Source: Elusimicrobiota bacterium | GTDB lineage: Bacteria > Elusimicrobiota > Elusimicrobia > F11 | Reading direction: 5' to 3' | NCBI GenBank assembly: GCA_044221725.1 | Contig: JBGAON010000001.1 | Span: 768,001 to 832,000 of the forward strand | DNA: 64,000 bases | Part shown: piece by piece, positions 23,181 to 41,367 of the stretch | How positions within the stretch are numbered: the stretch's first letter is position 1 | Layout of the letters: each line of letters opens with the position of its first letter | The notes under the pieces: generated by a model | What the model was told of the DNA's origin: nothing | Seen by the model: the letters and a program-made list of their open reading frames with translations, nothing else | Database searches by the model: none | Translations under genes and position numbers: made by a program

Positions 23181-25508
23181 ATGCGTTTTCCTTTTTTGAG
23201 GACCATTTGCTTTCTGATCACACCCGCCTATTTTTTTTCGAATGTTGCGTTTGGAGCCCTTACTGATTTTGACTCGTTGCAGCACTTAGGAAAACGAAAA
23301 GTCCTTTCTCCGTCTCGGCAAACGGGGCCAACGGTTTTCCATATTCAAGATGTTCACCACAATCCGGACGTGCAGCGAAATATTGCACGCACAATTGAAG
23401 AATTGAGACGCATTCGGAGCATTGATGCGGTCGCGCTCGAAGGCGCGTTTGAACCGGTTAACCTGTCCCATTTTCAAAAATTCACGGGTCGCGAAATCGT
23501 AGCGGCGGTCGCCGATCAAATGATGATGCAGAACGAAATTCCGGGGCCAATCTACGCGGCGTTGCGCGAGAAACATTTTCCACGGATCGTCGGGATCGAT
23601 GATCGCGAACATTACCGTTTGAACGTTGATGCGTATCGTGCTTCGCAGCACGGCGTACCATTTGCATTCCGAGAATTGGAAGCGGCGGAAAGCTGGCTTC
23701 AACAGAGAAAATCGAGCTTTTTCAATTCGAAACTTTCTTTGTTCGATTGCCACGTGCAAGCCTGTCGACGCCGAGGCCAACAATTCGATGACGTCAATTT
23801 GTTGTCCGCCTATTTTTCGCTTTGCAAAACCGAAGAAGAAAGGTGGCTGGTCCGAGCGTCCCGTAGAATGGAATTGGCGCGGAAGCTTGTGAGATTTTCG
23901 TTGCGAAGCGCCGAATGGCAGGAATACAAACGACTGTCTCGCGAATCCTTTCCGGCGCTCCGACCGCGGACTCTCGTACCGTTTGAAAAGTTTTACGAGC
24001 AAGCGGAACTTCGCGATGAACGCATGGCGCAAAATGTTTTAAAGGAAATTGCGCGTTCGAAGTTCACGACGAATAGCACGATAGCGTTGGTGGCGGGCGG
24101 TTTTCACACGTCGGGGATCGATCAGCGTTTGGTTGAGGCCGGTTGCCGCGTGGTCACTTTTGTTCCCAATATGCCAAAAGGCGGCACGAATGCCGGCAGT
24201 TCGTATTTGAACTTTCTTTTTCAGGACGACAAATCATTTTTGGCCGCGGAGCCACTGGCCCGTGAAACCGAACAGCTGATTTCAGAGCGTATTCTCGCAC
24301 GCGCTCTCCGTACGCGGTATCGATCGGAGGCGGTCCAACTGTTTCGAACGGTTCTCGGTCTCGGGACACGGTGCTGTATCGGAACGCTGCGAATCGCACG
24401 GCACTCGTTTGTGTTTGTCGGCCAACTTTCGAAAGCGTTTGTAATTTGGACCACATTTCGAGATAAGGCATTGCCGGACGAGCGAGTGTTCTCGGTTGAA
24501 ATTCCAAACGATCAATCGATTGATGCGGTTCAAAAATTGGCCACTACAACTGGAGACCAACTGGTCGATTGGTATGTGCGTACAATGAAACTATTTAATC
24601 CGAAAAACGATGAAGACCGTAAGCGGGTGCTCGAATGGATTTCGGCCCAACTTCGAAAGGCGGCGCAGTCAAAAATTATCTCTCCGTACGCGGTTATTGA
24701 TCATTTTTTTCATCCGATTGGCATTGCGGATCTCGATATTCTGTTGCCAAAGTATCCGTCGGCGCTGCGCGTTTTTTCTAAAGGATTCAAGAACATTCCT
24801 CTTTCCGGGAAGTTGTCCGACGAGGAATTTGTGCGGGAAGTTCTTGAGCATTTGATGAAGTTTCGAGTTCCGGGTAAACCGTTGAAGATTCTCGTCGCAG
24901 GAGGTGCCGGCGGAGGGAAAAGTACATTTGCAACGAATCTCGCCCGGGTGGCTGCATCGATCAATTTGAGGTCCAAATCAGAAAGCATGGATGCGTACCT
25001 TCTGTCGCGTCAGCAAAGACATGATAAAGGATTGGAAGGCTTGGCCATGTACGAACGCGACAAGGTCGGCGCCATGGTTGAGTCGCTTGCGAGCGAACGA
25101 CCGTTTTTCGGACGGACGGCCGACCGCAGGAAAGACATCAGGCGATACGAGGAAGTTGAAACCGACCCCAAGAATCTAGATCTCTATATTTTTGAAGGCG
25201 TTCTTTCGTTGGCCGACCAAGACTTACGAGAGGCATTCGACGTTGGAGTGTATGTCAACGAAAGCGACCAATATCGATTCCAAAATCGGCTCGACCGTGA
25301 TCCCGGTCTTAAAGGATACAGCGCGCTGATGATCGCGTGGACATTTGCTCAGACGCAACTCGACGAATTTCGTATGGCCCGTGACTCTATTCGGTACGCC
25401 TCATTGGTCGTCAAACCAATAAACCACGCCATCTACATTTCCAATCATCACTTGCATGATCTGAGAAAGGGGCCCGCGGAAATTCGCGGGGTACGGGTTG
25501 CCGCGTGA
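23181..25508 (+). CDS. Uncharacterised signal-peptide protein: N-domain shared with the giant protein plus C-terminal uridine kinase/PRK-like P-loop domain
   Basis: N-terminal motifs QDVH, ALEGA, GIDD, GGFHT; C-terminal motifs VAGGAGGGKST, MDAY, IFEGV, RFQNRLDRD. Confidence 0.75.
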   Translation: MRFPFLRTICFLITPAYFFSNVAFGALTDFDSLQHLGKRKVLSPSRQTGPTVFHIQDVHHNPDVQRNIARTIEELRRIRSIDAVALEGAFEPVNLSHFQKFTGREIVAAVADQMMMQNEIPGPIYAALREKHFPRIVGIDDREHYRLNVDAYRASQHGVPFAFRELEAAESWLQQRKSSFFNSKLSLFDCHVQACRRRGQQFDDVNLLSAYFSLCKTEEERWLVRASRRMELARKLVRFSLRSAEWQEYKRLSRESFPALRPRTLVPFEKFYEQAELRDERMAQNVLKEIARSKFTTNSTIALVAGGFHTSGIDQRLVEAGCRVVTFVPNMPKGGTNAGSSYLNFLFQDDKSFLAAEPLARETEQLISERILARALRTRYRSEAVQLFRTVLGLGTRCCIGTLRIARHSFVFVGQLSKAFVIWTTFRDKALPDERVFSVEIPNDQSIDAVQKLATTTGDQLVDWYVRTMKLFNPKNDEDRKRVLEWISAQLRKAAQSKIISPYAVIDHFFHPIGIADLDILLPKYPSALRVFSKGFKNIPLSGKLSDEEFVREVLEHLMKFRVPGKPLKILVAGGAGGGKSTFATNLARVAASINLRSKSESMDAYLLSRQQRHDKGLEGLAMYERDKVGAMVESLASERPFFGRTADRRKDIRRYEEVETDPKNLDLYIFEGVLSLADQDLREAFDVGVYVNESDQYRFQNRLDRDPGLKGYSALMIAWTFAQTQLDEFRMARDSIRYASLVVKPINHAIYISNHHLHDLRKGPAEIRGVRVAA

Positions 25509-27570: not shown

Positions 27571-29379
27571 ATGTTCAACCGAGAGCAAATTGATCAGGTG
27601 CGGTCGCGTGCCGACATCGTCGAAGTGATTCGCGAATATGTTCCGTCGCTGAAAGCGTCGGGCCGGTCGGTAAAAGGGTTGTGTCCGTTTCATAGCGAGC
27701 GAACGCCGTCATTTTATGTGCATCCGGAAAAGGGCTTGTTCAAATGTTTCGGGTGCGGCGAGTCGGGCGATGTGATCGCGTTTATCTCGAAGATGGAGCA
27801 GTTGACGTTTTCGGAAGCGTTGCGGCTGCTGGCGGAACGCACCGGCGTGCGATTGGAAGAAGACAAATTTCAGCAGAAAAGGGAACCCGAAGGAATTCGC
27901 GAAAAGGTTTACCGGGTTCTTGAAGCCGCATCAAAGATTTACGAAGACCAGTTGTGGGACGACCGATTGGGGCAGCCGGCGCGGTCGTATTTGGATGAAC
28001 GATTTATTTCGGACGATACGCGGCAAGCGTTTCACCTGGGATTCGCGGCGCACACCGGTGGCGGGGTTTTTGAAACGCTGGTCAAGAAAGGTTTTGCAAT
28101 AGAGTTGTGCCAACAAGCGGGGCTTGTGGCGCGGTCGAACAGCGGTCGGTTTTACGATCCCATGTTCGGTCGACTGATCTTTCCCATATTTGATTCGTTC
28201 GGGCATGTGATTGGATTCGGCGGTCGCGTGCTGCCACAAACCAAGAAACATTTCCTGGGCGGCGACGTTGAAGAAGACAAAGGTCCAAAATATTTGAACT
28301 CTCCGGAAACACCGGTGTTTTCTAAGGGGAAGTCGCTGTACGGACTTTTGCAGGCGAAACAAAGTATTTTGGCCTCTCGTCGCGCGGTGATTCTCGAAGG
28401 ATACATGGACGTGATTGGCGTGCATCAAGGCGGCGTGACAAACGCCGTGGCAACACTCGGAACCGCGTTTACCCGTGATCATGCGAAAGTACTGAAGCGT
28501 TACGCGAGCGACGTTACGGCGTTCTTCGACCCGGACGCGGCCGGCGAACAAGCCGCGATGCGTAGCTTGGAGCCGATGATTCAAGAAGATTTTTATCCGC
28601 GCGTTGTCATGACAGACGAAACCGGCGACCCCGACGAGATCATTCACGAGAAAGGCAAAGAGTTTTTTGAACAGCTGATTGAAAAGGCACCGGACTTCTT
28701 GGGGTTTGTGGAGCGCGTAACGGGCGCAGGAAAAGACGCTCCGTTAGATAAGAAGTCGGAGGCGGCGATGAAAGTGTTGGCGCTGATCGCGCAAACACCA
28801 AATGAAATTTTGAAGTCGGAATGGACGGCGCGGTTAGCAGCGGATCTGGGGCTGCGTGTGGAATCGCTCCAGGAACAATTAAAAAAGAAAGCGGTGGCCC
28901 GGTCGGTGTTGAGCAGCACGCCGGCGCCGAAGCCGATAAAAAAGGAACGAACGTTCCCGTCGGCCGAAGAAGAGATTTTGGTTTTGCTGATGAGCGAGCC
29001 GCGGTTTTTAAAAGAAACAGAGTTGCGAGCAGAAGATTTCACAACGGAACGCGAGCGGCGGCTTTTCGCAAAGATGTCGGAACAATTTTTGAATACCGGG
29101 GCACTGTCAATCCCAAAATTGGTGGACGACGTGACCGAAGCAGAAAAGGACTGGGTGGTTCGAATGTCGCTCGATGAGCACGAGTTTGAAGACCCGGCCG
29201 ATCGTTACAATCAGTTGGTCCGCAGCGTACGCTTAAAAAAAGAAAAGCAACGCCTGCAGGAGCTAAGTCGCAGCATTGCCGCGGGAACCGCGGCGATGGA
29301 TGTACAAATGGAATACAAGGATTTATTGCGCCGCATCAAAGGCACAGCGAGCGACGCGAAGGGAATGGTGACGAAATGA
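27571..29379 (+). CDS. dnaG: DNA primase
   Basis: CPFH...CFGC zinc finger, [21 protein letters not shown]; start ATG 27571. Confidence 0.97.
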
Positions 29380-31109
29380 TCCAACAACATAACAAGTCCA
29401 TCATCGACAACGACGTGTTGATGAAAGGGCTTATTACGCAGGGCAAAGAAGCCGGGTATATCACGTATGAGGAAATCATGCGCCGGCTGCCGGAAAACAC
29501 AACTCCGGAAGACTTGGACAATTTCTTCGGGCAGCTCGAAGAAATGGGCATCCAAGTGTTGGAAGCCGAAGATTCGGGCCGCAAGCCGGCCGCCTCGGAA
29601 GGCGCGCCGCAGCCAGAAGTCGAACTCGATACGCAAAATTCCATCCGCATGTACCTGTCGGAAATGGGGCGGGTGCCGCTGTTAACGCGCGAACAAGAAG
29701 TGACGCTGTCGCGAAATATTAAGGAACACGAAAAAGATCTGCGCCTGCTGGTGCTTCAGTCGCCGATCACGCTCCGTGAAATCAGCAACTGGCAGACGCT
29801 GCTTGAGCAAGACGAAATGACGCCAAAAGAACTCATGCCGCGCGGTCGCAAAACGTCCGCTGAGCTCAATCGCATGAAGCTCAAAGTGAAGCAGGTCGCC
29901 GGGTCCATTCAGAAGAGCGAGAAAGTCATTAACAACTTGGACGAGAAACTCCAAGCGCCGAACTTGTCGATCAAAGCGAAGATGAAGTTGCAGTTGTTGG
30001 CCGATCAAGAGCGCAAGCACATCGTTAACGAAATTATCAGCTTGAACTTAAACCAAGACAAAATCAAACGTCTGACGAACAAGATCAAAACGATTGCTTT
30101 GAAAATCCGTGAGTGTGAAGACGAGCTCGAACGCTACGAAAAGCGGCTTAATATGCCGCACGCGGAACTCCAGGCGATCTACAACAAAGTGCTCGCGAAG
30201 AAAGTAACGCCGTCCGCCTTCAAGAAACTCACCGGTTACACGCTGACCGGTATCGAGTCGACGATGGAGAACATCAAAAACGTGGAAAACCGTCGCACGC
30301 GCATTTTGCAGGTGCTGCCGGTCACGCGCGACAACATCATTGACTTGGATGTGAAGATTCGCGACTTGGAAGAAGCAATTCTCAAAGACAAATTGAAACT
30401 CATTCGCGCGAACCTGCGCCTTGTGGTTTCGATTGCGAAAAAGCACGTCGGTGCATCGAACTTGGAATTACCGGACTTAATTCAAGAAGGGGGGCTGGGA
30501 CTCATCAAAGCCGTTGAGAAGTTCGAATGGCGTCGCGGTTTCAAATTCTCGACCTACGCAACCTGGTGGATTCGCCAATCCATCAATCGCGCGATCGCGG
30601 ACCAGGCTCGCACCATCCGCATTCCGGTGCACATGAAGGAAATTATTTCGAAACTCACGAAGGTAGCCCGCAAATCGCGTCAGGAATTGGGTCGCGATCC
30701 AACGCTCGAAGAATATTCGAAGGCGCTGCGTCTATCGATGGACAAAGTGCGCGGCATTCTGCGAATTATGCAGGACCCGGTTTCGCTTGCGACACCCGTC
30801 GGTGAAGAGGAAGATTCGTCTCTCGAAGAATTCATTGAGGACGAGGCCAGTTCGGAACCGTCCGAAGGTGCACAGGATTTCCTGCGGCACCGCGAAGTGG
30901 AACGCGCGCTTTCGACGCTCAGCGAACGCGAAGCTCAGATCATCCGCTTGCGGTTTGGTATCGGCACGGGTTATCCGCGCACGCTCGAAGAATTGGGCCG
31001 CATCTTCAACGTGACCCGCGAACGCGTTCGTCAAATCGAAGCGAAAGCAATCCGCAAACTGCGCCACCCATCGCGCAGCCGGGTGCTGAAAGAATACTTG
31101 GACAATTAA
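29376..31109 (+). CDS. rpoD: RNA polymerase primary sigma factor
   Basis: Regions 1.1/1.2 (IRMYLSEMG), [29 protein letters not shown]. Confidence 0.97.
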
Positions 31110-31115
31110 GGAAGA

Positions 31116-31232
31116 CCCCACCCAACCCTCCCCATTGACGAAGAATGGGGAGGGCCCACTTTCCTACGCACTCTGCACAGCAACGCAGTTTTTTCCTCCC
31201 CATGTCTCCTCAATGGGGAGGGTAGGGTGGGG
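31116..31232. repeat. REP/MITE-like palindromic element, family A copy 2
   Basis: CCCCACCCAACCCTCCCCATT...AATGGGGAGGGTAGGGTGGGG. Confidence 0.85.
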
Positions 31233-31244
31233 AAAAAGTTATCC

Positions 31245-31288
31245 AACCCCTCGTGAAATCACCTGATTTTACGAGGGGTTTTGTTTTT
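31245..31288 (+). terminator. Rho-independent terminator after rpoD
   Basis: AACCCCTCGTGAAATC-acct-GATTTTACGAGGGGTT followed by TTGTTTTT. Confidence 0.8.
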
Positions 31289-31295
31289 CAGGGCT

Positions 31296-31323
31296 TCTTA
31301 ACGTGATCTTAATGCGCCCTTAA
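31296..31323 (+). promoter_or_regulatory. Three CTTAA direct repeats at 11-bp period upstream of the giant gene
   Basis: TCTTAAcgtgatCTTAAtgcgccCTTAA. Confidence 0.55.
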
Positions 31324-31349
31324 TAAAAGTACAGTTATATACGTTGGAT

Positions 31350-34300
31350 ATGCGCAATACCCTCGGTGTTTTCATCGCGTTCGTGTACTTTTTCGGCAAC
31401 GTGGTTCTGGCGCATTCGGCAGAAGTAAATTTTTGGCGCGAACGTCAAAAAAAGCAAACTCCACCCGAAAAAAACGAGGTTCAACTTGCGGCGTTGCCGG
31501 CCTCCCTGCCGGTGGGCCGGGACAACCCCGCCGACCTTCTCCGCCAAATACCCACGCTCAGCAAAACGTTCAACGCCATTTCAGAAAACGCGCTTCCTGA
31601 AAAATTTAAGCCGTCCCACGTTCCGGCCGACCTTCGCCCAGTTCTTGAACGCATTCCGACAAACGCCGGCACCATCAAGCAAGTAAGCATCGCGCCCACC
31701 GACAAATCGATGGTCGTGTTGCTGCAGGACGTGCACATGAACACCGAAGCGCAGGGAAATATTGCCGAGATCGTAAAAGCGATGCGCGTGCCGGTCGTTG
31801 CCGTCGAAGGGGCGGAGGGACCCTTCAATTTTTCGGATTTCGAAAATTTTAAAGACGGAAAAATAAAAAAGGCGGTTGCCGATTCTTTTCTGCACCAGAA
31901 CCTGATATCAGCGCCAAGCTATGCTGGTGTGTTGAGCGAGAAAGGAAAGCTTCAGCTTGTTGGCGTGGATGACGCCGACCGCTATCAGGCAAACGTAAAC
32001 GCCTACAAAGAAGCGACACGCGAGAAAAATGCGGTTGAAAAGCGATTGAAAAACAAGCGCCGCAGGTTGGCCGAACAAAAAGGGAAAGAACTAAACGAGG
32101 CTCTCAAGAAGTTCGACGCGCACCGTGCCGCTTACGAAGATGGCACGCTCGCGTTCGGCGACTACATCAAATGGTTGGCGAGCGACGACGCGAGCAACGA
32201 GCTTGTGATTAATCAGTTCTTGGCGGCGTACCAGATTGAAAAGCGATTGGATTTTGAGCGCGTCGAGCGGGAACGCGCCCGCGTTGTCGAGCAGCTCGCG
32301 CAAAAGCTCGATACGAGCGATTTGAATTCCCTTCTCGCTCAAAGTGTGGCTTATCGGCTGGGAAAAATTAGCTACGCCGGCTATTACGGATGGATCAAAA
32401 CTTTCATGACGCGCGCGCATCTATCGCTTTCGGACACGCCGGCCTTCGACGAATATATTCAATACGTGTTGTTGACCGAAGGAATAAACGCAGAGAAGCT
32501 GTTTGCAGCCATGAAAAATCTCGAAGCGCGGACGGTCGCTTCGCTCTGCCGCACGCCGCGAGAAAAAGAGCTGATGCAAGCGTCGCGGTTGTTGTTTCTT
32601 GAGCAGAAACTCGTCGACTTCGCACTAACGCCGGAGGAATGGGCGGAGTATCAGCGGATGCAAGGAAGTGAATTTACAATGGGGAGGGTAGGGTGGGGCA
32701 TAGATACCGTCGACCTTAACTCCTTCGAGAATTTTTATCGCGAAGCCGACGTTCGTAGTCACGCGATGGTAAGAAACTTAAACCGTTTGTCTCGAAGCCC
32801 GTCCGTTCTCATTGTTGGTGGCTTTCACACGCCTCTCGTTACGAAACTGCTGAGAGTCAGCGGACGGTCCTTCGTGGTGGTCCAACCGAAAATCACGAAG
32901 ATCGAGGGCTTATGCGGTTCTGAATATCTGTCGGTGTTTACTCAAGAAAGAACCACGCTCGATCAAATTTTTGAAGGGCAAAAACTTTTCTTGGCGCCGC
33001 TCGACCGGCACGCTGGCAAAGACCGAGCGGTCACCGGGAAAATGTACGGCGCAATGTTGGCGATCGCAGCAGGGCCCGGCGAATACATAAAGACCCCATC
33101 CGACGGAATTTTTGCCACGACGGGGGACGTTCCGTTTTGGGGCCACCTGTTGGGTCAGGTCGACATCGAAAATCTCGATCCAAACGTGAAGTATTTTGCG
33201 GTGGTAGGTGCGGCGACACTCTTCGCGATACTCTCTTTCCGTCACCTTCGAAAGTACTTCCGGTTTCGCCTGTTGCGAGATTTTCGGGGCAATCCCCCAA
33301 TTTTCCAAGAACGGAACAATCCCGAAGAAGAATCCGCGTATAAGGGAATTGCATTCCGTTCGACGCGGCGTCATCCGAATCGTCATTTCAATGGAGACAG
33401 TTCTTCGGTGGATGTGTTGTTCAATGGAATTTCCATGGCCGGCGTGTACGACGGCGTGAGCGGTGCGAAAAACGCCGACATAGCGAGTCGCGAATCAAAC
33501 AACTACGTTCGGGCGCGTCTTGGTTTGTTCCTGCAGCGTTGGTCGCTCGATGCATTGCGAGCTGGTTTTACGATGGAGATGGAAAGAGAATTGGAAACAG
33601 AAATCGGTACCATCTTTCGGGACGTCGAGCGATATCTCGCCGGACAAATTAACGAGGGCGGAACAACCGTATCGTTGGCCATTTCAATCCCGCTTACCTC
33701 CGGCGATCAACGTGTGCTTGTTGTTAACGGCGGAGATTCCCGTGTGTACGCGGAACAAGCCGGCGCTCTTCAGCAACTCACCATCGACAACCGGTATGCG
33801 AAGGGATCCTATGATTTGGGCGGAGTCAGCGATTTGAAGAAAGACATTTTTAAAATAGCGATGAGTGAATTCGGAAAAGACCCGATTCGAGGTTTCAATT
33901 TCAAAGGACAAGTGGCCAATGATCTGACGCCGCACGGTCGCTACGTTCCGCAATTCACCAAGATAACAACGGCCGCCAACATGCGTTTGATTCTCGCCAG
34001 CGATGGATTGTGGAAGAACGTGACCGAATTCCGGCAAAGCTTATTGGCGGTGAAGTTTTTGACGGCGGAAGATTTGGCCCAGGAACTTATCGACGAAGCG
34101 ATACGAAGATGTGATTCCGGTTACGGTCGCAGGGATGACATTACCGTCGCGGTTATCGCGCCCCGACCTTTGCCTCCCGAGCAATTGCCGGTGCGCGTGT
34201 GGAGACAAGAAGATGTTCCCAAAATCAAGAACCGCAAGGCACCGCCGCTCACGGTGCTCGGAACGACCGGAGCGTGGCGCCTAGTTGAGTTGGGAGTTAA

Positions 34301-37300
34301 TCGGGTTCTCGGAACGAAGATTCACCTTTCCGATAACAATGTGAAGCGGTTCGTGGCACCGGTGTTGGAGCTCACTTGGTTTGCGGGAATGTTGCACTTC
34401 CCAATTGTCGTCGGAACAATCTTCTTTCTTTTGCACCTTCCGCGCAGCGATGTTTCGCCGAGCAAAGATTGGGCCCGCTCCACACTCCGGCTCGCGGTTC
34501 TTTCTCTTGCGTTCTCCGTCGTTTTTGTTCTTCCCGCTTACTTCTATCTGACTGCCGGCTCATTGCCCATGACTCAAGACGGTTCGCTCTCTTTCCAATG
34601 GGCGCTTATTTTAAATGGTTCTCTCCACGTAATCTACAACGTGATCGCCGTGAAATTAAAACTGCCGGTACTTACAGCCGGTGATGCGATTTTAAAATCG
34701 TTGACGCGAAACGAAATGCAGTTGATTCAAGCGATGGTGCTAATGTTGGAGGGTGACAAAAAAGAAGGAGCGAATATTTATTTAAACGATATTGATCCAG
34801 ATATCGCGAATATGCGCGACTACTTAATCCGCTACGTTAGGTACCGCAAGAATGCCCCGTCGGCTTTCGAAGAATCGATGAGAGATTTCATTGCTAATCG
34901 ATTAGCAGGGGGCCCGAATGACGCGCGTGTGACCGCGTTCGTGCGATCCTTTGGCCGCTTGGAAGGTGACATTGGAAAAGATTGGCTCTTTGACGCGCCG
35001 GACTCTGCACGGAACGAACCGCAAAGGAAAGGATCCCGCATTGAACGTCCAACCTTGGCGGCCTTTACCAATTGGATTGAAAGCCTCCCCTCAAGAGACG
35101 AATTGAATTCGGATAGCGTGGATGTCGTGCGATTAATTTGTGCTGTGATAACGAATTCCTCCGACGCATTTTATGTGAACGCCGATCTACGCAAAATAAA
35201 TGCAGTGGTGTGGAGGCGGGTTGTCGCGTCTTATTTCAATCTCGTGGAGGATGATCGCTTGGCATCGAAAAAGCTTTCGGACTTTCTCGCGAAACATGAA
35301 AAGATGCCCGGTTATTTGCCCGAAAATATGCGCGAGGCGCTGAATGACAATTTTCCGAACGGCGCCGGAAGAACTCCGTTGGCGGTTCTAAATTTCTTAA
35401 TGGCACGAATTGCTTTTGACAAGCTCGCGCTCTTCGAAAAAGAAAAGGATCGCTACCGGCGAGCCTTGAAGGAATTGAACGGATTTTTAAGTCGGATCGC
35501 GGAGTTTCATCAGGAAAAAAGCACCGATGACTCGGTTGAGCTTGTCGTTTCCCAGTGGGACACGCCTCCCGATGATTCAACCGTCGATGCCAACAAGACA
35601 ATCGGCGTTAGTTTGGAAGATGTCAATGGAACGCCTGCCTATATTCGCAAAAAGATTAAGGCGACAATTGCTAATCGCAGCAGTCGACCCAATGTGCGGT
35701 TTGCTTTGGATCGTGACGGCTCGGTCCGAGTGGAAAATCAAATCGTTCCTGTATCGGTTAATGGAATTGATTCAAGCCGCTTTCCAAATGTGGTCGAGGC
35801 TCTTCGAATAAGTATCGGATTGTTGTTAACCGATGATCCCGCGGCAAAGGCACGGTTGATGACTCAAGCAGAGGCTGTAACGGTACGCACCGCTGGTGGT
35901 TACCATTCGTTCCGTGATGCAAAATTAAGCACGCTGGTTGCCCGCAGCACATTATCGGCTGGCGCGCGGCATTTCTTTCTAGAAAACCATGACGTGTTTC
36001 AATGGTACGTGGATGAAGATTTGTTGGGCGATTTCATCAATGTTCTCGGCGGAAAAGGCGGCACGCCTGTTGTGACGCTTGTGGTAAAGGAATACCTGGA
36101 GAACGTTTATGAGTTTGAAACCGCGCGCAGCAAACCACAACTGAAAGCGGCTTTGGCATCGCTTATTCACTCGTACAAATTCTCGCGCGCCGTTGAATTG
36201 GGTCGGGTGTGGATTCAACTTGAAAACGATGATGATAAAAAGATGCTCGATGAAAACGAACCTATTTCGAAACTGAGTCCAGAGAACCACGCATTTGTCG
36301 TCGTGAGTGCGGCGCAGGCCGCGACCGTATCTGATTTTCAGGCGTTTGTTACGGAGCAACGGCGGAATCCTGCGAACGAAAACAAGTTTTATGTCTTTCA
36401 TAAACTTTATCGGTCGCAAGAAAGGCTGTGGCTCGTCACCGCGCGCGATGGTCGCATCGAATTGAATTACGCGAGCACGACGTATTCTGAGATTGCGGGA
36501 CAATTGCGGTTTCAGCGTCAGGAAGCCGCTCTCGGCTACATTGATGAGGCGGGTATTTTCCGCATGATTTGGTACATGAAGCCGTCGCCCGAACACGCTC
36601 ACGAATGGACATCCGCTGCTTCCTCGAAAGTTACGGAAATGTTTGCGGAGAACAAGCTGCAAATTGAAGATAACGGTGCGGGGACGGATCTTCTTATTTC
36701 CGAACTTCACGTCCAACTAGGAATTGCGTACGGGCCCAATGCCTATCAGATCTCACGCGAAAAGAATCGTCTGGTGTATCGTAATCCGTTGGGGCTGCAC
36801 TTTGATTTTGCGAGATACCCAAAATGGGTTATGCCGGCCCTACAAATTGCGAGAGAGCACGGGATTAAAATCGGCGACCGTTTGAAATCCCTAATGGAAA
36901 AAAACACGCTCACCCCAAAAAGAGGACCCGTTATCTTGCAATCGGTTCGGATTGCGAATGCGAAAGGCGATCCAAAAGGAGACGGGCGGTTAACAATGAC
37001 AACCATTGGTACCCACACCGCCGGCCGCTGGTTCTGGAAAAAAATCCTCCGCACTGACGCAACGGAAGTTGAGGATGGCGTTTACGACAACGCGATCAAA
37101 AAACGTTTCGCTCCGGTGTTTGAAATTATGTGGTTCATCGCGATGCTCGCGTTTCCACCGTTGATTGTTGTTTTCTACCGCGCGCATCTGCCGCGCGGCG
37201 ACGAACCCGCTCTCAGCAAATCCGACCGCCGCTGGCTGAAAGCGGCGACGGTTGTAGTTTTTGGTGTGCCTTTGGCCGGTGCGTATTTCACCGTGGTGCT

Positions 37301-40300
37301 TCTTCTCGATTTCAATTCCTTTGATTTGTTTCTAAGTTCGTTCTCCAAGTTTTCGCCGGTGCTGCTGAAAATTTCGGCGTTCGCCACCGGTATCAATTAC
37401 GTTCTGCACCAGATTTACAACCCGATCGCCGTGAATCTGAAACTGCCGGCGCTCGCTGTTTTTGACGAGGACGCGTTGCCACCTGTTGTTGCGGGTTTGA
37501 AGTACACGCTGAAGGCCGGGGCGCTGGCTCGCGGAATTGCGCTTGAGGAAGATGGGGAAATCAGAATAGAAGTGTATGACAGGATCATGGTGACCTTGCA
37601 TAAGAAAAATGGCGCCGTGAGAGTAATTCCCAGTGACAATGTAAAAGTGAAAGACCGCGCTAAAACGCTCGAGCCCGGAAAGGTTATTGTTTTCGGACGC
37701 TTGAGCAACGATCAGCTCGGCGCGCTCGATGCCGGGTTCCCCAATACCAGGATTTCGGGTAGCCACTTCTCCGTGGAAATGGATGACGCCGGCCGAATTA
37801 CGATTCGTGATCTGTTTTCGACGAACGACACCTATTTTACGGCGACCAAAATAACTCCGAATTCCGGCCGCCTGGTGACGAAATATTCGTGGGATCACTT
37901 CCTTCGCGCGTTTGTCGCTGACGAGACCATTGGAAAGGTGCAAAATTTGAAGCCAGAACCGGCGAATCCACTGTCGGCACTTCCGGTTAATCTCAACCGT
38001 GAAATTGCGACAGCACTGACCGAAATCAGCTCGCTTCCGGTGCCCGCCGCGGTCGCCGACCAGATTCGTCTTTTGAAAGTTCTCGAAAGCACGCTGGCAT
38101 CAAGAATCGGAAAACCGGAATATACGGAGGCGGAATATCTTCCGCTTCGCGCTTGTATGGTTTTTGAAATCTTGCGGTTGTTGAAATCGGAGGGATTTAA
38201 GTCGAATCAACCGATGCCAGTGTTTGTGAGAAAAAAGACGGGCGTGTTGCCCACGGTCGATGTTGAGATCTCGGATAACGAACAAAAATTCTGGTTCCGT
38301 ACCGATCAGCCTGTGAATCCCACCTTCGCGTTGGTGCGCGATGGCGAAAGGAAGTTGCAGATGTTGACGATGGAGAGGCCGGGGGCTTCTGGAAGATACG
38401 ACGCCATCGCGGGCCGTCCGCCGGTAACGTTGAACAACGCGTTCAGCGTTGAAATTCATTACTCGAAAGATATCGGGTCTGCGTATTTTTTCTTCTACGA
38501 TTTTCCTGGGAGGCTTGTGCAAGGGTTCGTGTCGCATCTTGATTTTGATGGAACACCATCACCTTTTTTCCCGCTTGCCGGCGAGGACCTCATAAAATCC
38601 GAAGCGGCGTTTCATCGTCCCGACGCGGCCGAAAAAACAGTCTCCCCGAAACCCGAAATAAACACAACGCCCGTGAACGTCACGGAGATTTCTAAGAACA
38701 ACGTTGCGAAAGATGCACCGAGCGCCGCACTTTTCGGTGCGCGTTTATTCCCTGGCGCCCCTGAGAATTTCTCGCTGGAAATGCGTCCGAACGATGAAAA
38801 GAGCGCAGCGCTGCAAGGAAGCACATCTCACGATGGGCAGGGCTCGGACGAAGACAAAAACCAAGATCGCGTCTTTGTGGACAACGATCGAAAAGTCGCG
38901 CTCGTGGCGGACGGTATTTCAATTCCGGTGGGTGGTGCCGCCGCAGCCGCCGTCACGGCTTATTCGGCAAGCGCCCGGCTTTTGGCTGGAATGGAAATAC
39001 TTCAAAAACAGACGGATGCAAGATTGGGAGATGTAATTTCACTCGCGAAGAACAGCGCCGAGTTCGCGCAGGCGGCCGTCATGCGCGAAGATTTTCGTCG
39101 GAGTGCGTGGACCGGGTTAAGCGTCAGCGCCGAGAACGCTCATCCTATCGGCTCCACGCTTCTCATGGTTATCCCGATTCAGGTCCGTCTGCCCAACGGA
39201 GCGGTGGTGAAGAAGGCCGTGATCGTCAGTCACGGGGACTCTGCCATTATCGTCGTGAAGAAGGATGGTCGGTATGCCCGGGTCACGGACGTTGACAACG
39301 TTGCCGGAACCGTGACGCGAGAAAACGCGACGTTGCCGAAAGCGAAAAAGATAGAAGTGCCCGAAAATCCACACGGGATTTGGGCCGAAATTACGTCGCA
39401 TATCGGTATGAACAAATTTAAGTGGAATCCGCACAATGTTCGGATTGTCGATCTTGACATCGGCGACCGCATTCTTGCGATGACGGACGGCGTTTCTGGG
39501 AATCTCTCCGATAAAGAGATCGCCGAGCACGTGCTAAAAGAGCCAAATCCATTCGACCATGTCGCGACGATCCATCGGGAATCAATGGAACGCGGGGCGG
39601 CGCACCGAGCCAATCACGATTTGCCGGGGCACAGCGACGACGTGTCGATGGTGTCGCTCGCCGTCGACGAAACGTTTGGACAACATTTAATCGTGGATGA
39701 GAACACCGCGTTGTCGGTGGAATGGACTCGGCCGTTGCTTTATAAGCGTAAGCAGATGGCAGAAGTGTACACGACGCCGGCGAATATCAACATTGGGGGT
39801 ATTGGATTAACGCTGAATGCCAACGCCCACCATTTTCACGTCGACAGCGAAACGGTCGGGCACGATCCCGTCGTGGATCCGGCGCAGATGATCGTTACTC
39901 ATCCGATAAAGATCGGTCGAGAAAAAGCAAGCGTGGATATGGCTGTGCGGTCCGATAAGGTTTCAAAAAAACATCTGGAGCTTACGCCGGGAGTGGTGTT
40001 GCAAGTTGCAGATCCGTCAACAAATGGTACGTACTTCTTTGACGCGCCCTGGCCCAATCGACGATTGGGGCTTTTGGCAGAACCATCTTTAACCACTTTG
40101 CGCACGCTTCGTTTGGTTCAACGATTCGCGCGCTTCGTTCCGCGGGCGTTCGGTTTGCGTGTGGCTGTGCGAACGCTCCTTATTCTCGCCGTGGAATTCC
40201 CGAGGTTCTTTGTTCCGACCGTGACGTTTCGCGATCAGCACTTTGAGTCGACCACGCTCGCGAACACGGCCGAAAATCGAGTTAAAGTTCGTAATCGGAT

Positions 40301-41192
40301 TTTGTTGATCACCGTCTTGTCGGTGGCGATTTCGATGCTTGGCGTCGTTCCGGCGTTTGCATCGGAGATGTCGACGGCGAACCGGTTGTTGATTTCCGGC
40401 GCATCGCTTTTGGCGGGCAATTTCGTCGCGCACGCGCCATTTGTTGAGCAACAGACCGGGCGGATTGCGGATGTGCTCGGAGAGTTCGAACACGATCAAG
40501 TGCTCTCCAAGACAGCGGTGGCGGACCTGGTTAAAATTTTGAGCCCGACAGCCGACCGCTCGTTGGGTCTTAAAGACGCGTTGACCGCTCGCGCGATCGA
40601 CGGATTGGCTCGAAATCTCACGCGCGGAAATGTGGTGGACGTTTTCCCAGCGCTTAATTTGCTGCAAACCAAGCAGCGGCAGGCCGTTCGCATTGATTCT
40701 CTATCAAGGCTTGCCGCTGTTGAGAGTGGTCGTGTTGTCCCGCGACTCGAAATCTCCGGCGCAAAAACGGTTGATGAGTTGTGGAGAGAAATCAACTCGA
40801 TAAACACCTGGTCGAACACGAACAAGAAAAAAGTGACGCTGGCCTTTGATGATCGTCTGCTGGCGCAAGCGCGCGCGCAAGGTCCGATGCGTACGAATAG
40901 GAATTTAACCATCATCGCACACTCCGCAGTCCCGCAGTCAAAGATCGATCTTGCTCGGATGTTTGGAATGCGGGAATTGGACATGCGCCGTTTGGAGTTG
41001 GTGGTGTCGCGCCGCGTGCGCATGACGCACGAAATGGAAGCGCGCATTCAGACCGTGCGCACGCTGGCGCATCTCGAAGTGAATTTGTACCTGCTTGTTG
41101 ACGAGGCGCTGCGCATCGCAATTCCAATCGAACCGAAAGACTTGTCCGAATTCTCTGAGTTGCAACGCCGGCTTATTGATTCTCAGGCGTAA
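31350..41192 (+). CDS. Giant (~3280 aa) multidomain membrane protein: signal peptide, conserved N-domain, 2 PP2C-type phosphatase domains, 2 FHA domains, repeated TM modules
   Basis: Single uninterrupted ORF; PP2C motifs (VYDG/GDSR/SDGLW/DDITV and NQD/VADG/GDS/TDGV/DDVS); FHA motifs (GR...SxxH...STNxTY) twice. Confidence 0.85.
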   Translation: MRNTLGVFIAFVYFFGNVVLAHSAEVNFWRERQKKQTPPEKNEVQLAALPASLPVGRDNPADLLRQIPTLSKTFNAISENALPEKFKPSHVPADLRPVLERIPTNAGTIKQVSIAPTDKSMVVLLQDVHMNTEAQGNIAEIVKAMRVPVVAVEGAEGPFNFSDFENFKDGKIKKAVADSFLHQNLISAPSYAGVLSEKGKLQLVGVDDADRYQANVNAYKEATREKNAVEKRLKNKRRRLAEQKGKELNEALKKFDAHRAAYEDGTLAFGDYIKWLASDDASNELVINQFLAAYQIEKRLDFERVERERARVVEQLAQKLDTSDLNSLLAQSVAYRLGKISYAGYYGWIKTFMTRAHLSLSDTPAFDEYIQYVLLTEGINAEKLFAAMKNLEARTVASLCRTPREKELMQASRLLFLEQKLVDFALTPEEWAEYQRMQGSEFTMGRVGWGIDTVDLNSFENFYREADVRSHAMVRNLNRLSRSPSVLIVGGFHTPLVTKLLRVSGRSFVVVQPKITKIEGLCGSEYLSVFTQERTTLDQIFEGQKLFLAPLDRHAGKDRAVTGKMYGAMLAIAAGPGEYIKTPSDGIFATTGDVPFWGHLLGQVDIENLDPNVKYFAVVGAATLFAILSFRHLRKYFRFRLLRDFRGNPPIFQERNNPEEESAYKGIAFRSTRRHPNRHFNGDSSSVDVLFNGISMAGVYDGVSGAKNADIASRESNNYVRARLGLFLQRWSLDALRAGFTMEMERELETEIGTIFRDVERYLAGQINEGGTTVSLAISIPLTSGDQRVLVVNGGDSRVYAEQAGALQQLTIDNRYAKGSYDLGGVSDLKKDIFKIAMSEFGKDPIRGFNFKGQVANDLTPHGRYVPQFTKITTAANMRLILASDGLWKNVTEFRQSLLAVKFLTAEDLAQELIDEAIRRCDSGYGRRDDITVAVIAPRPLPPEQLPVRVWRQEDVPKIKNRKAPPLTVLGTTGAWRLVELGVNRVLGTKIHLSDNNVKRFVAPVLELTWFAGMLHFPIVVGTIFFLLHLPRSDVSPSKDWARSTLRLAVLSLAFSVVFVLPAYFYLTAGSLPMTQDGSLSFQWALILNGSLHVIYNVIAVKLKLPVLTAGDAILKSLTRNEMQLIQAMVLMLEGDKKEGANIYLNDIDPDIANMRDYLIRYVRYRKNAPSAFEESMRDFIANRLAGGPNDARVTAFVRSFGRLEGDIGKDWLFDAPDSARNEPQRKGSRIERPTLAAFTNWIESLPSRDELNSDSVDVVRLICAVITNSSDAFYVNADLRKINAVVWRRVVASYFNLVEDDRLASKKLSDFLAKHEKMPGYLPENMREALNDNFPNGAGRTPLAVLNFLMARIAFDKLALFEKEKDRYRRALKELNGFLSRIAEFHQEKSTDDSVELVVSQWDTPPDDSTVDANKTIGVSLEDVNGTPAYIRKKIKATIANRSSRPNVRFALDRDGSVRVENQIVPVSVNGIDSSRFPNVVEALRISIGLLLTDDPAAKARLMTQAEAVTVRTAGGYHSFRDAKLSTLVARSTLSAGARHFFLENHDVFQWYVDEDLLGDFINVLGGKGGTPVVTLVVKEYLENVYEFETARSKPQLKAALASLIHSYKFSRAVELGRVWIQLENDDDKKMLDENEPISKLSPENHAFVVVSAAQAATVSDFQAFVTEQRRNPANENKFYVFHKLYRSQERLWLVTARDGRIELNYASTTYSEIAGQLRFQRQEAALGYIDEAGIFRMIWYMKPSPEHAHEWTSAASSKVTEMFAENKLQIEDNGAGTDLLISELHVQLGIAYGPNAYQISREKNRLVYRNPLGLHFDFARYPKWVMPALQIAREHGIKIGDRLKSLMEKNTLTPKRGPVILQSVRIANAKGDPKGDGRLTMTTIGTHTAGRWFWKKILRTDATEVEDGVYDNAIKKRFAPVFEIMWFIAMLAFPPLIVVFYRAHLPRGDEPALSKSDRRWLKAATVVVFGVPLAGAYFTVVLLLDFNSFDLFLSSFSKFSPVLLKISAFATGINYVLHQIYNPIAVNLKLPALAVFDEDALPPVVAGLKYTLKAGALARGIALEEDGEIRIEVYDRIMVTLHKKNGAVRVIPSDNVKVKDRAKTLEPGKVIVFGRLSNDQLGALDAGFPNTRISGSHFSVEMDDAGRITIRDLFSTNDTYFTATKITPNSGRLVTKYSWDHFLRAFVADETIGKVQNLKPEPANPLSALPVNLNREIATALTEISSLPVPAAVADQIRLLKVLESTLASRIGKPEYTEAEYLPLRACMVFEILRLLKSEGFKSNQPMPVFVRKKTGVLPTVDVEISDNEQKFWFRTDQPVNPTFALVRDGERKLQMLTMERPGASGRYDAIAGRPPVTLNNAFSVEIHYSKDIGSAYFFFYDFPGRLVQGFVSHLDFDGTPSPFFPLAGEDLIKSEAAFHRPDAAEKTVSPKPEINTTPVNVTEISKNNVAKDAPSAALFGARLFPGAPENFSLEMRPNDEKSAALQGSTSHDGQGSDEDKNQDRVFVDNDRKVALVADGISIPVGGAAAAAVTAYSASARLLAGMEILQKQTDARLGDVISLAKNSAEFAQAAVMREDFRRSAWTGLSVSAENAHPIGSTLLMVIPIQVRLPNGAVVKKAVIVSHGDSAIIVVKKDGRYARVTDVDNVAGTVTRENATLPKAKKIEVPENPHGIWAEITSHIGMNKFKWNPHNVRIVDLDIGDRILAMTDGVSGNLSDKEIAEHVLKEPNPFDHVATIHRESMERGAAHRANHDLPGHSDDVSMVSLAVDETFGQHLIVDENTALSVEWTRPLLYKRKQMAEVYTTPANINIGGIGLTLNANAHHFHVDSETVGHDPVVDPAQMIVTHPIKIGREKASVDMAVRSDKVSKKHLELTPGVVLQVADPSTNGTYFFDAPWPNRRLGLLAEPSLTTLRTLRLVQRFARFVPRAFGLRVAVRTLLILAVEFPRFFVPTVTFRDQHFESTTLANTAENRVKVRNRILLITVLSVAISMLGVVPAFASEMSTANRLLISGASLLAGNFVAHAPFVEQQTGRIADVLGEFEHDQVLSKTAVADLVKILSPTADRSLGLKDALTARAIDGLARNLTRGNVVDVFPALNLLQTKQRQAVRIDSLSRLAAVESGRVVPRLEISGAKTVDELWREINSINTWSNTNKKKVTLAFDDRLLAQARAQGPMRTNRNLTIIAHSAVPQSKIDLARMFGMRELDMRRLELVVSRRVRMTHEMEARIQTVRTLAHLEVNLYLLVDEALRIAIPIEPKDLSEFSELQRRLIDSQA
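32677..32702. repeat. Family A element right-end remnant inside the giant ORF
   Basis: CAATGGGGAGGGTAGGGTGGGGCATA matches the ends of the copies at 2725 and 31116. Confidence 0.75.
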
Positions 41193-41218
41193 ATGTTATG
41201 ATCCGACCTCTTTCATCT

Positions 41219-41292
41219 GGGCCCATAGCTCAGTTGGTTAGAGCACTCCGCTCATAACGGATTGGTCGGTGGTTCAAGTCCACCTGGGCCCA
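41219..41292 (+). tRNA. tRNA with CAT anticodon, probably tRNA-Ile2 (lysidine); CCA not encoded
   Basis: GGGCCCA/TGGGCCC acceptor stem, CTCATAA loop, GGTTCAAGTCC T-arm; resembles ileX, which typically follows rpoD. Confidence 0.9.
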
Positions 41293-41295
41293 TAC

Positions 41296-41367
41296 GGGCA
41301 GTTAGCTCAGCGGGAGAGCGCTCGCCTCACACGCGAGAGGTCATAGGTTCAATCCCTATACTGCCCA
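41296..41367 (+). tRNA. tRNA-Val(CAC); CCA not encoded
   Basis: GGGCAGT/ACTGCCC acceptor stem, CTCGC-CTCACAC-GCGAG anticodon arm, GGTTCAATCCC T-arm. Confidence 0.93.

Follow-up and report, generated by a model that had tools for sequence, protein, structure and literature searches.

In the middle of a window of 64,000 nucleotides from an Elusimicrobiota bacterium (assembly GCA_044221725.1, contig JBGAON010000001.1, positions 768,001 to 832,000), a giant open reading frame (ORF) lies between a sigma factor gene, which we take to be rpoD from its sigma-70 motifs rather than from a library scan, and two tRNA genes (Table 1). A preliminary description, made from the sequence alone, had read it as a membrane protein of about 3280 amino acids with two PP2C phosphatase and two FHA domains, i.e. 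a single-chain reader and eraser of Ser/Thr phosphorylation. The length was correct and the frame has no internal stop; residue numbers below are counted from the TTG start at 31344. In what is probably the source run, one unitig of 10,053 bp (31203-41255) spans the gene with no differences and at a near-flat depth of about 29, its break falling in the upstream repeat, and two DNA runs from other studies contained pieces identical to the gene; runs that shared only a small part of its words (X14-X22) were left out of account. RNA contigs, which may include DNA and give no level or strand, were found along the gene in one wastewater run, one of four RNA runs with sequence of the gene, all from one study. 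Thus, the check on chimerism advised in the preliminary description came out in favour of the gene, and an assembly chimera is very unlikely. At 90% identity, the protein forms a cluster of its own, and a full-length search returned only itself, as might be expected of a chimeric or spurious ORF; since its motifs are intact throughout and 25 paralogues have the same plan, in addition to the unitig, the identical pieces and the RNA contigs, we regard the chance of an artefact as close to negligible.

Table 1 Features of the giant gene and its surroundings in the window.
Feature	Position	Strand	Remark
Second family member: signal peptide, head, P-loop kinase (PRK/uridine kinase family)	23181..25508	+	775 amino acids, 6 kb upstream
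rpoD (presumed), upstream border of insertion site	29376..31109	+	Named from sigma-70 motifs
REP-like palindromic repeat, downstream of rpoD and upstream of the gene	31116..31232	.	41 blastn pieces genome-wide, self-hits included
Three TTAA boxes, family upstream motif	31298..31323	+	11-bp period; putative function
Giant ORF	31344 (TTG) or 31350 (ATG)..41192	+	3282/3280 amino acids, no internal stop; one unitig across
Sec-type signal peptide, probable VLA/HS cleavage site (cut between A and H)	31350..31412	+	Hydropathy, family N-termini
Family head, predicted TIKI/ChaN/EreA-like fold with large helical insert	31650..32999	+	Invariant D129, H131, E155, R471, H495
Marginally hydrophobic segment with basic tail, transmembrane status uncertain	33183..33248	+	Kyte-Doolittle 19-mer 1.56
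PP2C phosphatase 1	33336..34190	+	All metal-binding Asp and motif-1 Arg
CPBP/Rce1-like membrane module 1, followed by L-P-x-L motif	34317..34745	+	E1009, H1031, H1095, N1099
Unannotated cargo domain of ~480 amino acids, common to 5 other family proteins	35439..36893	+	
CPBP/Rce1-like membrane module 2	37077..37499	+	E1927, H1948, H2022, N2026
FHA domain 1	37692..37874	+	GR, SxxH, N-D instead of N-G
PP2C phosphatase 2	38802..39698	+	All metal-binding Asp; motif-1 Arg absent
FHA domain 2	39906..40037	+	GR, SxxH, NG; weak score
Degenerate third membrane module	40131..40448	+	E2951, H2966, H3030, Val for Asn; motif alignment with L033, L034 and P0115 only
Subfamily C-terminal domain ending in Ala	40485..41189	+	
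tRNA-Met(CAT) and tRNA-Val(CAC), downstream border of insertion site	41218..41367	+	

Comparison of the locus in nine related genomes showed that the gene is a lineage-specific insertion. In six of the nine, the gap from rpoD to tRNA-Met measures at most 100 bp, i.e. the site is empty; of the other three, G004 carries an unrelated 2-kb insert (L123:6942-9026), G009 has a more distant member of the family described below right after rpoD (L125), and in G010 the contig ends. This gap takes insertions repeatedly, and the idea of a conserved orthologue linked to rpoD was rejected by the same comparison. No ORF lies between the gene and either flank, so that there is no adjacent immunity gene at this locus. 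The REP-like (repetitive extragenic palindromic) repeat has many copies in the genome, some of which are clustered (C2:137-138 kb, C4:568 kb).

A family with a common head and exchangeable cargo

The genome (2.82 Mb in 5 contigs) codes for 26 proteins of 775-8862 amino acids with the same N-terminal domain. They follow one plan, a signal peptide and a head of predicted TIKI/ChaN fold at the N-terminus and usually Ala as the last residue, and their remainders differ. The cargo found there comprises hexokinase, GH18, dehydroquinate synthase, adenylate kinase, HD, 2-hydroxyacid dehydrogenase, phosphorylase, starch synthase, beta-CASP, WD40, a protein kinase together with sigma-70, GGDEF and P-loop kinase domains, with several paralogues giving no cargo match; this is cargo of the cytoplasm type. 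In 10 of the 26 upstream regions, we found CTTAA-N6-CTTAA, which occurs 29 times genome-wide, and this shared motif suggests co-regulation of the family. The head was present in 50 of 151 sampled genomes of the phylum and in none of the 45 genomes of one family. The best 80 of 282 confirmed head loci came from records of Elusimicrobia/Elusimicrobiota or of Candidatus Obscuribacterium magneticum, which presumably belongs to the Elusimicrobiota as well.

The segments of the giant protein have their best relatives in different places: the head in genomes G003, G007 and G008, the first PP2C domain in giants that belong to other families, module 1 in genome G001, the unannotated domain in G010, and module 2 and the tail in G007 and G001. 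Relatives with the same head, modules or tail carry cyclic nucleotide monophosphate (cNMP)-binding, FHA, kinase or metallophosphoesterase cargo instead, and the closest ones have cNMP-binding, kinase or metallophosphoesterase domains in place of the PP2C/FHA pair. PP2C was also found in other family members, in two copies in P0143. The protein is a mosaic of cargo cassettes on a shared frame, and the pairing of PP2C and FHA is ordinary, interchangeable cargo of a 26-member family, contrary to the view of a purpose-built reader and eraser.

Phosphatase and FHA domains

All four domains named in the preliminary description exceeded the curated Pfam cut-offs, with 26.1 and 42.5 bits for the two PP2C_2 stretches (cut-off 24) and 27.7 and 23.1 bits for the two FHA stretches (cut-off 20.7), the second of which scored 20.8 in another scan. 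A profile of seven cargo PP2C sequences matched solved PP2C phosphatases with an E-value of 1e-20. In PP2C phosphatases, Asp residues bind the metal ions and the Arg of motif 1 binds the phosphate. The metal-binding Asp residues of motifs 1, 2, 5, 8 and 11 are invariant in the seven-sequence alignment and, as the description had held, kept in both copies (D685, D703, D798, D887 and D931/D932 in the first, D2508, D2523, D2632, D2715 and D2765/D2766 in the second); the motif-1 Arg is present in the first copy (R680) and absent from the second. The claim that the FHA domains retain GR, SxxH and NG was borne out for the second, which directly follows the second PP2C domain, and in part for the first, where GR (2118-9) and SxxH (2138-41) are followed by N-D instead of N-G (2161-2). 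A sequence search of solved FHA structures with the second FHA domain gave no match. Scores of 52 and 36 bits against the Stp1 equivalog lie far below its cut-off of 230.

The genome keeps separate housekeeping genes for PP2C, FHA, kinase and adenylate kinase, and since these outscore the cargo copies, an additional role of the cargo is favoured. Of the housekeeping type, Ser/Thr kinase, PP2C and FHA genes are adjacent at G000:C5:325389-327762 (minus strand). Two Hanks-type kinase domains are encoded in all. The earlier remark that no kinase is nearby therefore holds for the flanking genes, which were scanned, and not for the genome, with this cluster on C5 and a paralogue containing a kinase domain.

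Membrane modules related to CPBP/Rce1 proteases

The transmembrane (TM) blocks of the protein bear P-x-x-E, F-x-x-x-H and H-x-x-x-N motifs and belong to a four-helix family. For this family, a profile was built from 33 regular-expression seeds from the genome and its relatives and grown to 78 modules; leaving out three truncated modules gave a 75-module set (A3), beside a hand-picked set (A2). An iterative hidden Markov model (HMM) started from the two modules of the query alone drifted to unrelated membrane proteins and was abandoned, and a model of 10 seeds, one of 11 regular-expression seeds having been removed as non-hydrophobic, did not extend. The module profile returned 496 proteins from 1.84 billion representatives; among the best 150 of these, 129 had at least 1000 amino acids, and the head was found in 101 of the 129. 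Other ORFs of the genome gave no match to the profile at an E-value of 0.02. In the sampled phylum, 34 of the 151 genomes had modules and 33 of them also the head; in the remaining one, the match was to a standalone CPBP gene (at the site of L151). A single chain can contain up to 5-6 modules, located between cargo blocks.

Conservation was determined on held-out modules, not on the regular-expression seeds. In 267 such modules, the Glu was kept in 252, the two His in 267 and 264 and the Asn in 261, with all four in 247, at a mean column identity of only about 11%. These residues correspond to the catalytic E140/H173/H227/N231 of MmRce1. The query's modules are without the second Glu of EExxxR, whose counterpart in MmRce1, E141, points away from the cavity according to the accessible text of PMC5874806. 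In an HHalign comparison with a profile of 19 standalone CPBP proteins, the module profile reached a probability of 95.9 (E 5e-9), with at most 0.5 for the reversed and 10 shuffled controls, and the Pfam Rce1-like family matched 15 of the 75 modules (best E 1.4e-6) compared to 2 of 75 for the next family. At the family level, profile comparison thus identifies the TM modules as homologues of CPBP/Rce1 proteases. Modules 1 and 2 of the query matched the family profile (96.8%) and not the standalone CPBP profile, which makes their link to CPBP a transitive one; the standalone-CPBP HMM gave one significant family module, none of the query's, and module 1 had no match in Pfam. What had been described as C-terminal TM segments turned out to be the third, internal module, followed by a soluble tail of 235 amino acids. 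Two variants, at L033:11660-12110 and L034:9630-10050, have a short polar hairpin between Glu and His, which suggests that two TM helices with interfacial catalytic residues are the minimal unit.

After the last helix, 35 of 246 module tails showed the motif [LWMIFV]-[PA]-x-[ALM]-[STA]-[VILAM], as opposed to a mean of 3.9 and a maximum of 12 in shuffled tails. Both intact modules of the query have the L-P-x-L form of this motif, which is a candidate cut site.

Signal peptide, head, unannotated regions and tail

The N-termini of the family look like ordinary Sec signals: 104 of 114 are hydrophobic, with a mean charge of +2.7 in the n-region and +0.3 in the mature part, a few of the rows being truncated proteins. 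The five residues of the head listed in Table 1 are invariant in all 26 paralogues. A structural model of the head, with a predicted local distance difference test (pLDDT) score of 82, was aligned by VIA-align to ChaN (Z 8.6, root-mean-square deviation 5.9, 182 residues), HopBA1 (7.7), EreC (7.4) and two EreA-like proteins, so that five of the top ten rows were entries of the TIKI superfamily (Z 7.2-8.6); rank 1 was an unrelated methyltransferase (Z 9.2, 96 aligned residues). Foldseek gave no match to the model at an E-value of 0.001, a sequence comparison of the head profile with solved structures gave no relative, and Pfam PF04187 exceeded its cut-off in one paralogue. As far as the accessible text of PMC6254334 describes it, the 2His/2Glu set of RRSP fits the order of the head residues, by motif order only; the corresponding set of two His and two acidic residues in the head would be D129, H131, E155 and H495. 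Taken together, the head is probably a TIKI-superfamily hydrolase. Its conserved end (32880-32999; consensus EKTPLEKLFxGEKLFL), which has low confidence in the model, is a possible self-cleavage or docking site.

The TM with a positive-inside tail that the preliminary description had placed behind the head is marginal, with a Kyte-Doolittle 19-mer value (KD19) lower than the median of the family modules (2.13). The domain at 35439-36893, with conserved T-Y-S-x-x-A-G, W-x-x-K and V-x-x-G-x-A, also occurs in L128, L034, L064, P0056 and P0003. For the orphan region of residues 1130-1880, nothing was found in Pfam, NCBIfam, PDB and Atlas, and a protein search gave only itself; residues 1116-1365 and 2186-2480 had no relative among the collected family proteins compared. 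A C-terminal Ala is found in 21 of the 26 paralogues compared to 83 of 726 background ORFs.

Topology

From the upstream flank through loops 1, 2 and 3 to the downstream flank of the modules, the density of Lys plus Arg was 0.144, 0.018, 0.181, 0.011 and 0.137. By the positive-inside rule, these high values on the flanks and loop 2 and near-zero values in loops 1 and 3 place the cargo on the side of a cytoplasm. Among 99 distinct proteins with head and modules, 42 have a linker of at most 250 amino acids, and 40 of these 42 are without a segment of KD19 of at least 1.6 between the head and the first module; in the whole set, 62 of the 99 have no hydrophobic segment there, and the same measure detected such a segment in 98 of 99 modules. 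The cargo would thus face a cytoplasm, yet the head looks exported and most short-linker proteins have no TM between the two. This leaves two options, namely that the head is not exported by its signal, or that the chain leaves the producer and is inserted elsewhere. The 775-residue paralogue 6 kb upstream, in which Walker A is intact and no TM follows the signal, is the smallest test case for this conflict. The genome contains three secretin matches, and nothing ties them to the family.

Further members of the family

Four family members stand in a row at G000:C2:153757-204047 (2529, 8862, 1975 and 2936 amino acids), followed at C2:219210-273230 by an ORF of 18,006 amino acids without head match. 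At G000:C5:197522-203413, the family member L016 has, after its signal peptide, sigma-70 regions 2 and 4 together with a CPBP-like module and a Hanks kinase domain. A close relative of the query is split into two overlapping ORFs of 1294 and 1363 amino acids (L027:9713-17621), by a frameshift, an assembly error or naturally. In genus g57, with genomes of 1.1-1.3 Mb, 8 of 19 genomes have heads and none gave a module match, and families f18, f19 and f22 have short head proteins of about 570-710 amino acids without modules, possibly ancestral forms.

Interpretation

Since the TM modules resemble stripped intramembrane proteases, the chain may not stay single. We consider it rather probable that modules 1 and 2 work as glutamic intramembrane proteases, and we give even odds to the proposal that they cleave the chain to which they belong, the most plausible place being near the post-module [LW]-P-x-[AL]-[ST] strand. 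Such cuts would leave cargo pieces, each anchored by a module. As the cargo seems to face a cytoplasm and yet lies on the same side as the signal-bearing head, we infer that the precursor may be exported and come to reside in another cell's membrane, that of a prey or a host. In this cell, the PP2C domains would strip Ser/Thr phosphates and the FHA domains would bind phosphothreonine substrates, so that phospho-signalling would be damped, and the head might be a second processing or entry peptidase. To this reading, in which a polyprotein is exported, cuts itself and acts in another cell through its phosphatase and FHA pieces, we assign a probability of roughly 35%; the suggestion in the preliminary description that the protein may act on phosphoproteins of another cell is compatible with the topology evidence. 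A general version, which we put forward tentatively and with considerable doubt, would be a polymorphic effector platform of the Elusimicrobiota, in which Sec-exported polyproteins with a TIKI head reach another cell, enter its membrane from the cytoplasmic side and are cut by their built-in minimal CPBP proteases into membrane-anchored enzymes, the present member silencing Ser/Thr phospho-signalling of the target.

Several observations weigh against this reading. The profile used for retrieval of the held-out modules itself favours the Glu, His, His and Asn columns. EExxxR is reduced to one Glu, the second Glu being found in 90 of the 267 held-out modules and the Arg not being conserved, and the spacing from Glu to His is 21-22 residues as opposed to 33 in MmRce1. 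Modules 1 and 2 match the standalone CPBP profile with a probability of only 2.7%, the match of module 3 to the family profile is not significant (4%) and its Asn is absent, and the post-module motif is found in a minority of tails. Rce1 was retrieved neither by Foldseek or VIA-align with the model of module 1 (pLDDT 78, predicted template modelling score 0.59, short first hairpin) nor by a search of PDB sequences with the module profile, neither of which we take as an exclusion. The topology argument rests on hydropathy, not on a topology predictor, and with the marginal TM of the query (KD19 1.56), the head could come to lie outside and the whole of the cargo inside. Helices with a Kyte-Doolittle value of about 2.1 should stall at SecYEG in the producer's own inner membrane, and we know of no route for delivering polytopic polyproteins to another cell. 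Finally, much of the family cargo looks metabolic rather than toxic.

The metabolic cargo, which includes glycogen and sugar enzymes, would suit the same self-cutting frame residing in the inner membrane of the producer, where the PP2C and FHA pieces would counter the cell's own Hanks kinases, including the kinase of the paralogue. Ordinary inner-membrane insertion fits the positive-inside bias, and the possible TM after the head of the query, the two Hanks-type kinase domains of the genome and the shared upstream motif with its hint of co-regulation point the same way. Yet, 40 of the 42 short-linker relatives have no TM to return the chain after the signal peptide, the 775-residue paralogue, with a signal and an ATP kinase, has no TM, housekeeping copies already exist and the cargo varies even within the genus, so that we judge this location rather unlikely. 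The location of the second FHA domain directly after the second PP2C domain would instead suit the scaffold considered in the preliminary description, a membrane protein that stays in one uncut chain, with FHA recruiting substrates to PP2C and the modules serving only as anchors or as metal-binding pseudo-proteases. Loss of the full EExxxR, failure of the fold search to retrieve Rce1 and the degenerate third module agree with such a scaffold, as does the ability of a Glu-His-His site to bind Zn, reported in the accessible text of PMC13734883. For an anchor, however, near-invariant Glu, His, His and Asn at about 11% mean column identity are hard to explain, and relatives do not retain the pairing of PP2C with FHA; we thus think this explanation unlikely.

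Modules and head could also be active proteases and at the same time further cargo, with membrane proteins of the producer or target or the Ala-ended tails of the family as substrates. In the accessible texts of PMC5874806 and PMC11980579, the characterised CPBP proteases Rce1 and myxosortase cut other proteins near their C-termini, and terminal Ala is far above background in the family. Set against this cleavage in trans are the recurrence of modules between cargo blocks, with as many as 5-6 copies in a chain, like punctuation, their near confinement to head-bearing genomes and the one short motif by which they are often followed, which make it distinctly improbable in our view.

Relation to known systems

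As far as the texts are accessible, bioRxiv 10.1101/2023.11.21.568195, 10.64898/2026.06.07.730766 and 10.1101/765248 and PMC11573180 report multi-enzyme membrane proteins of giant size from Omnitrophota and mention huge proteins from Elusimicrobiota, and the topology, processing and target of such giants of both phyla are a recognised puzzle. The protein studied here offers small units for addressing it, namely a module of 140 residues, in which four residues are predicted to be catalytic and a possible cut region is present, a head for which an active site can be proposed, and the two phosphatases. Its shared frame, protease-like punctuation and topology conflict make the question directly testable. 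If cleavage in cis is true, the module would be a minimal intramembrane protease punctuating polyproteins, and if the topology conflict is real, there would be a new route for placing polytopic proteins in another cell. In the literature searched, subscription papers being outside its scope, we found no description of a TIKI head or CPBP-like modules in these giants, and the supplementary domain catalogues of the preprints may list PF02517 or PF04187.

The head appears, by structure search, to share the alpha/beta core of the TIKI/ChaN/EreA superfamily (ChaN 2G5G, HopBA1 5T09, EreC 6XCQ, BcR135; RRSP of MARTX toxins, PMC6254334, as far as accessible), and its invariant D-x-H, E, R and H follow the order of the 2His/2Glu set of RRSP, with Asp in place of the first Glu. 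It differs by a helical insert of about 260 residues and its fixed N-terminal place after the signal; the Z-scores are only 7-9 and RRSP was not among the structures listed. With the CPBP/Rce1-like glutamic intramembrane proteases (PF02517; MmRce1, PDB 4CAD; myxosortase MrtX), the modules share profile-profile homology at the family level, the four-helix core, an identical succession of Glu, FxxxH and HxxxN and an active-site side that follows the positive-inside rule. Here, however, only this core is left and repeated within a polyprotein, the second Glu and the Arg of EExxxR are lost, the first hairpin is shortened in the query and there is no structural match. The PP2C and FHA domains keep the Asp set and the GR/SxxH/N motifs of bacterial PP2C (Stp1/PstP/tPphA) and FHA proteins of Hanks-kinase signalling, but their closest relatives are cargo in other giants, and the housekeeping cluster lies elsewhere.

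A conserved N-terminal trafficking part, swappable cargo and a built-in peptidase are also features of polymorphic and MARTX-type autoprocessing toxins, including PrsW-fused ones, for which the accessible text of PMC3482391 proposes that PrsW, a membrane-embedded peptidase and distant CPBP relative, releases the toxin domains. In contrast to these, the cargo is internal, multiple and mostly made up of metabolic or signalling enzymes, several protease modules are present per chain, no immunity gene is located beside this locus and no delivery system is known. The multi-enzyme giants of the Omnitrophota (Archaeovorins, bioRxiv 10.1101/2023.11.21.568195; 'multi-enzyme metabolic clusters', bioRxiv 10.64898/2026.06.07.730766), whose accessible main texts do not mention CPBP, CAAX or Tiki, are likewise very long proteins with a signal peptide, TM segments and divergent cytoplasm-type enzymes, of uncertain topology and with proposed cleavage into pieces. 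They measure 10,000-147,000 amino acids, and C39/S8 peptidases with SecA-like domains are proposed as their cutters. Archaeovorins are defined by at least 30,000 amino acids, SecA-like and C39/S8 domains, whereas the present protein has 3,282 amino acids and no such Pfam matches; it is a 3,280-residue protein of the Elusimicrobiota (from the ATG) that belongs to a family of 26 paralogues.

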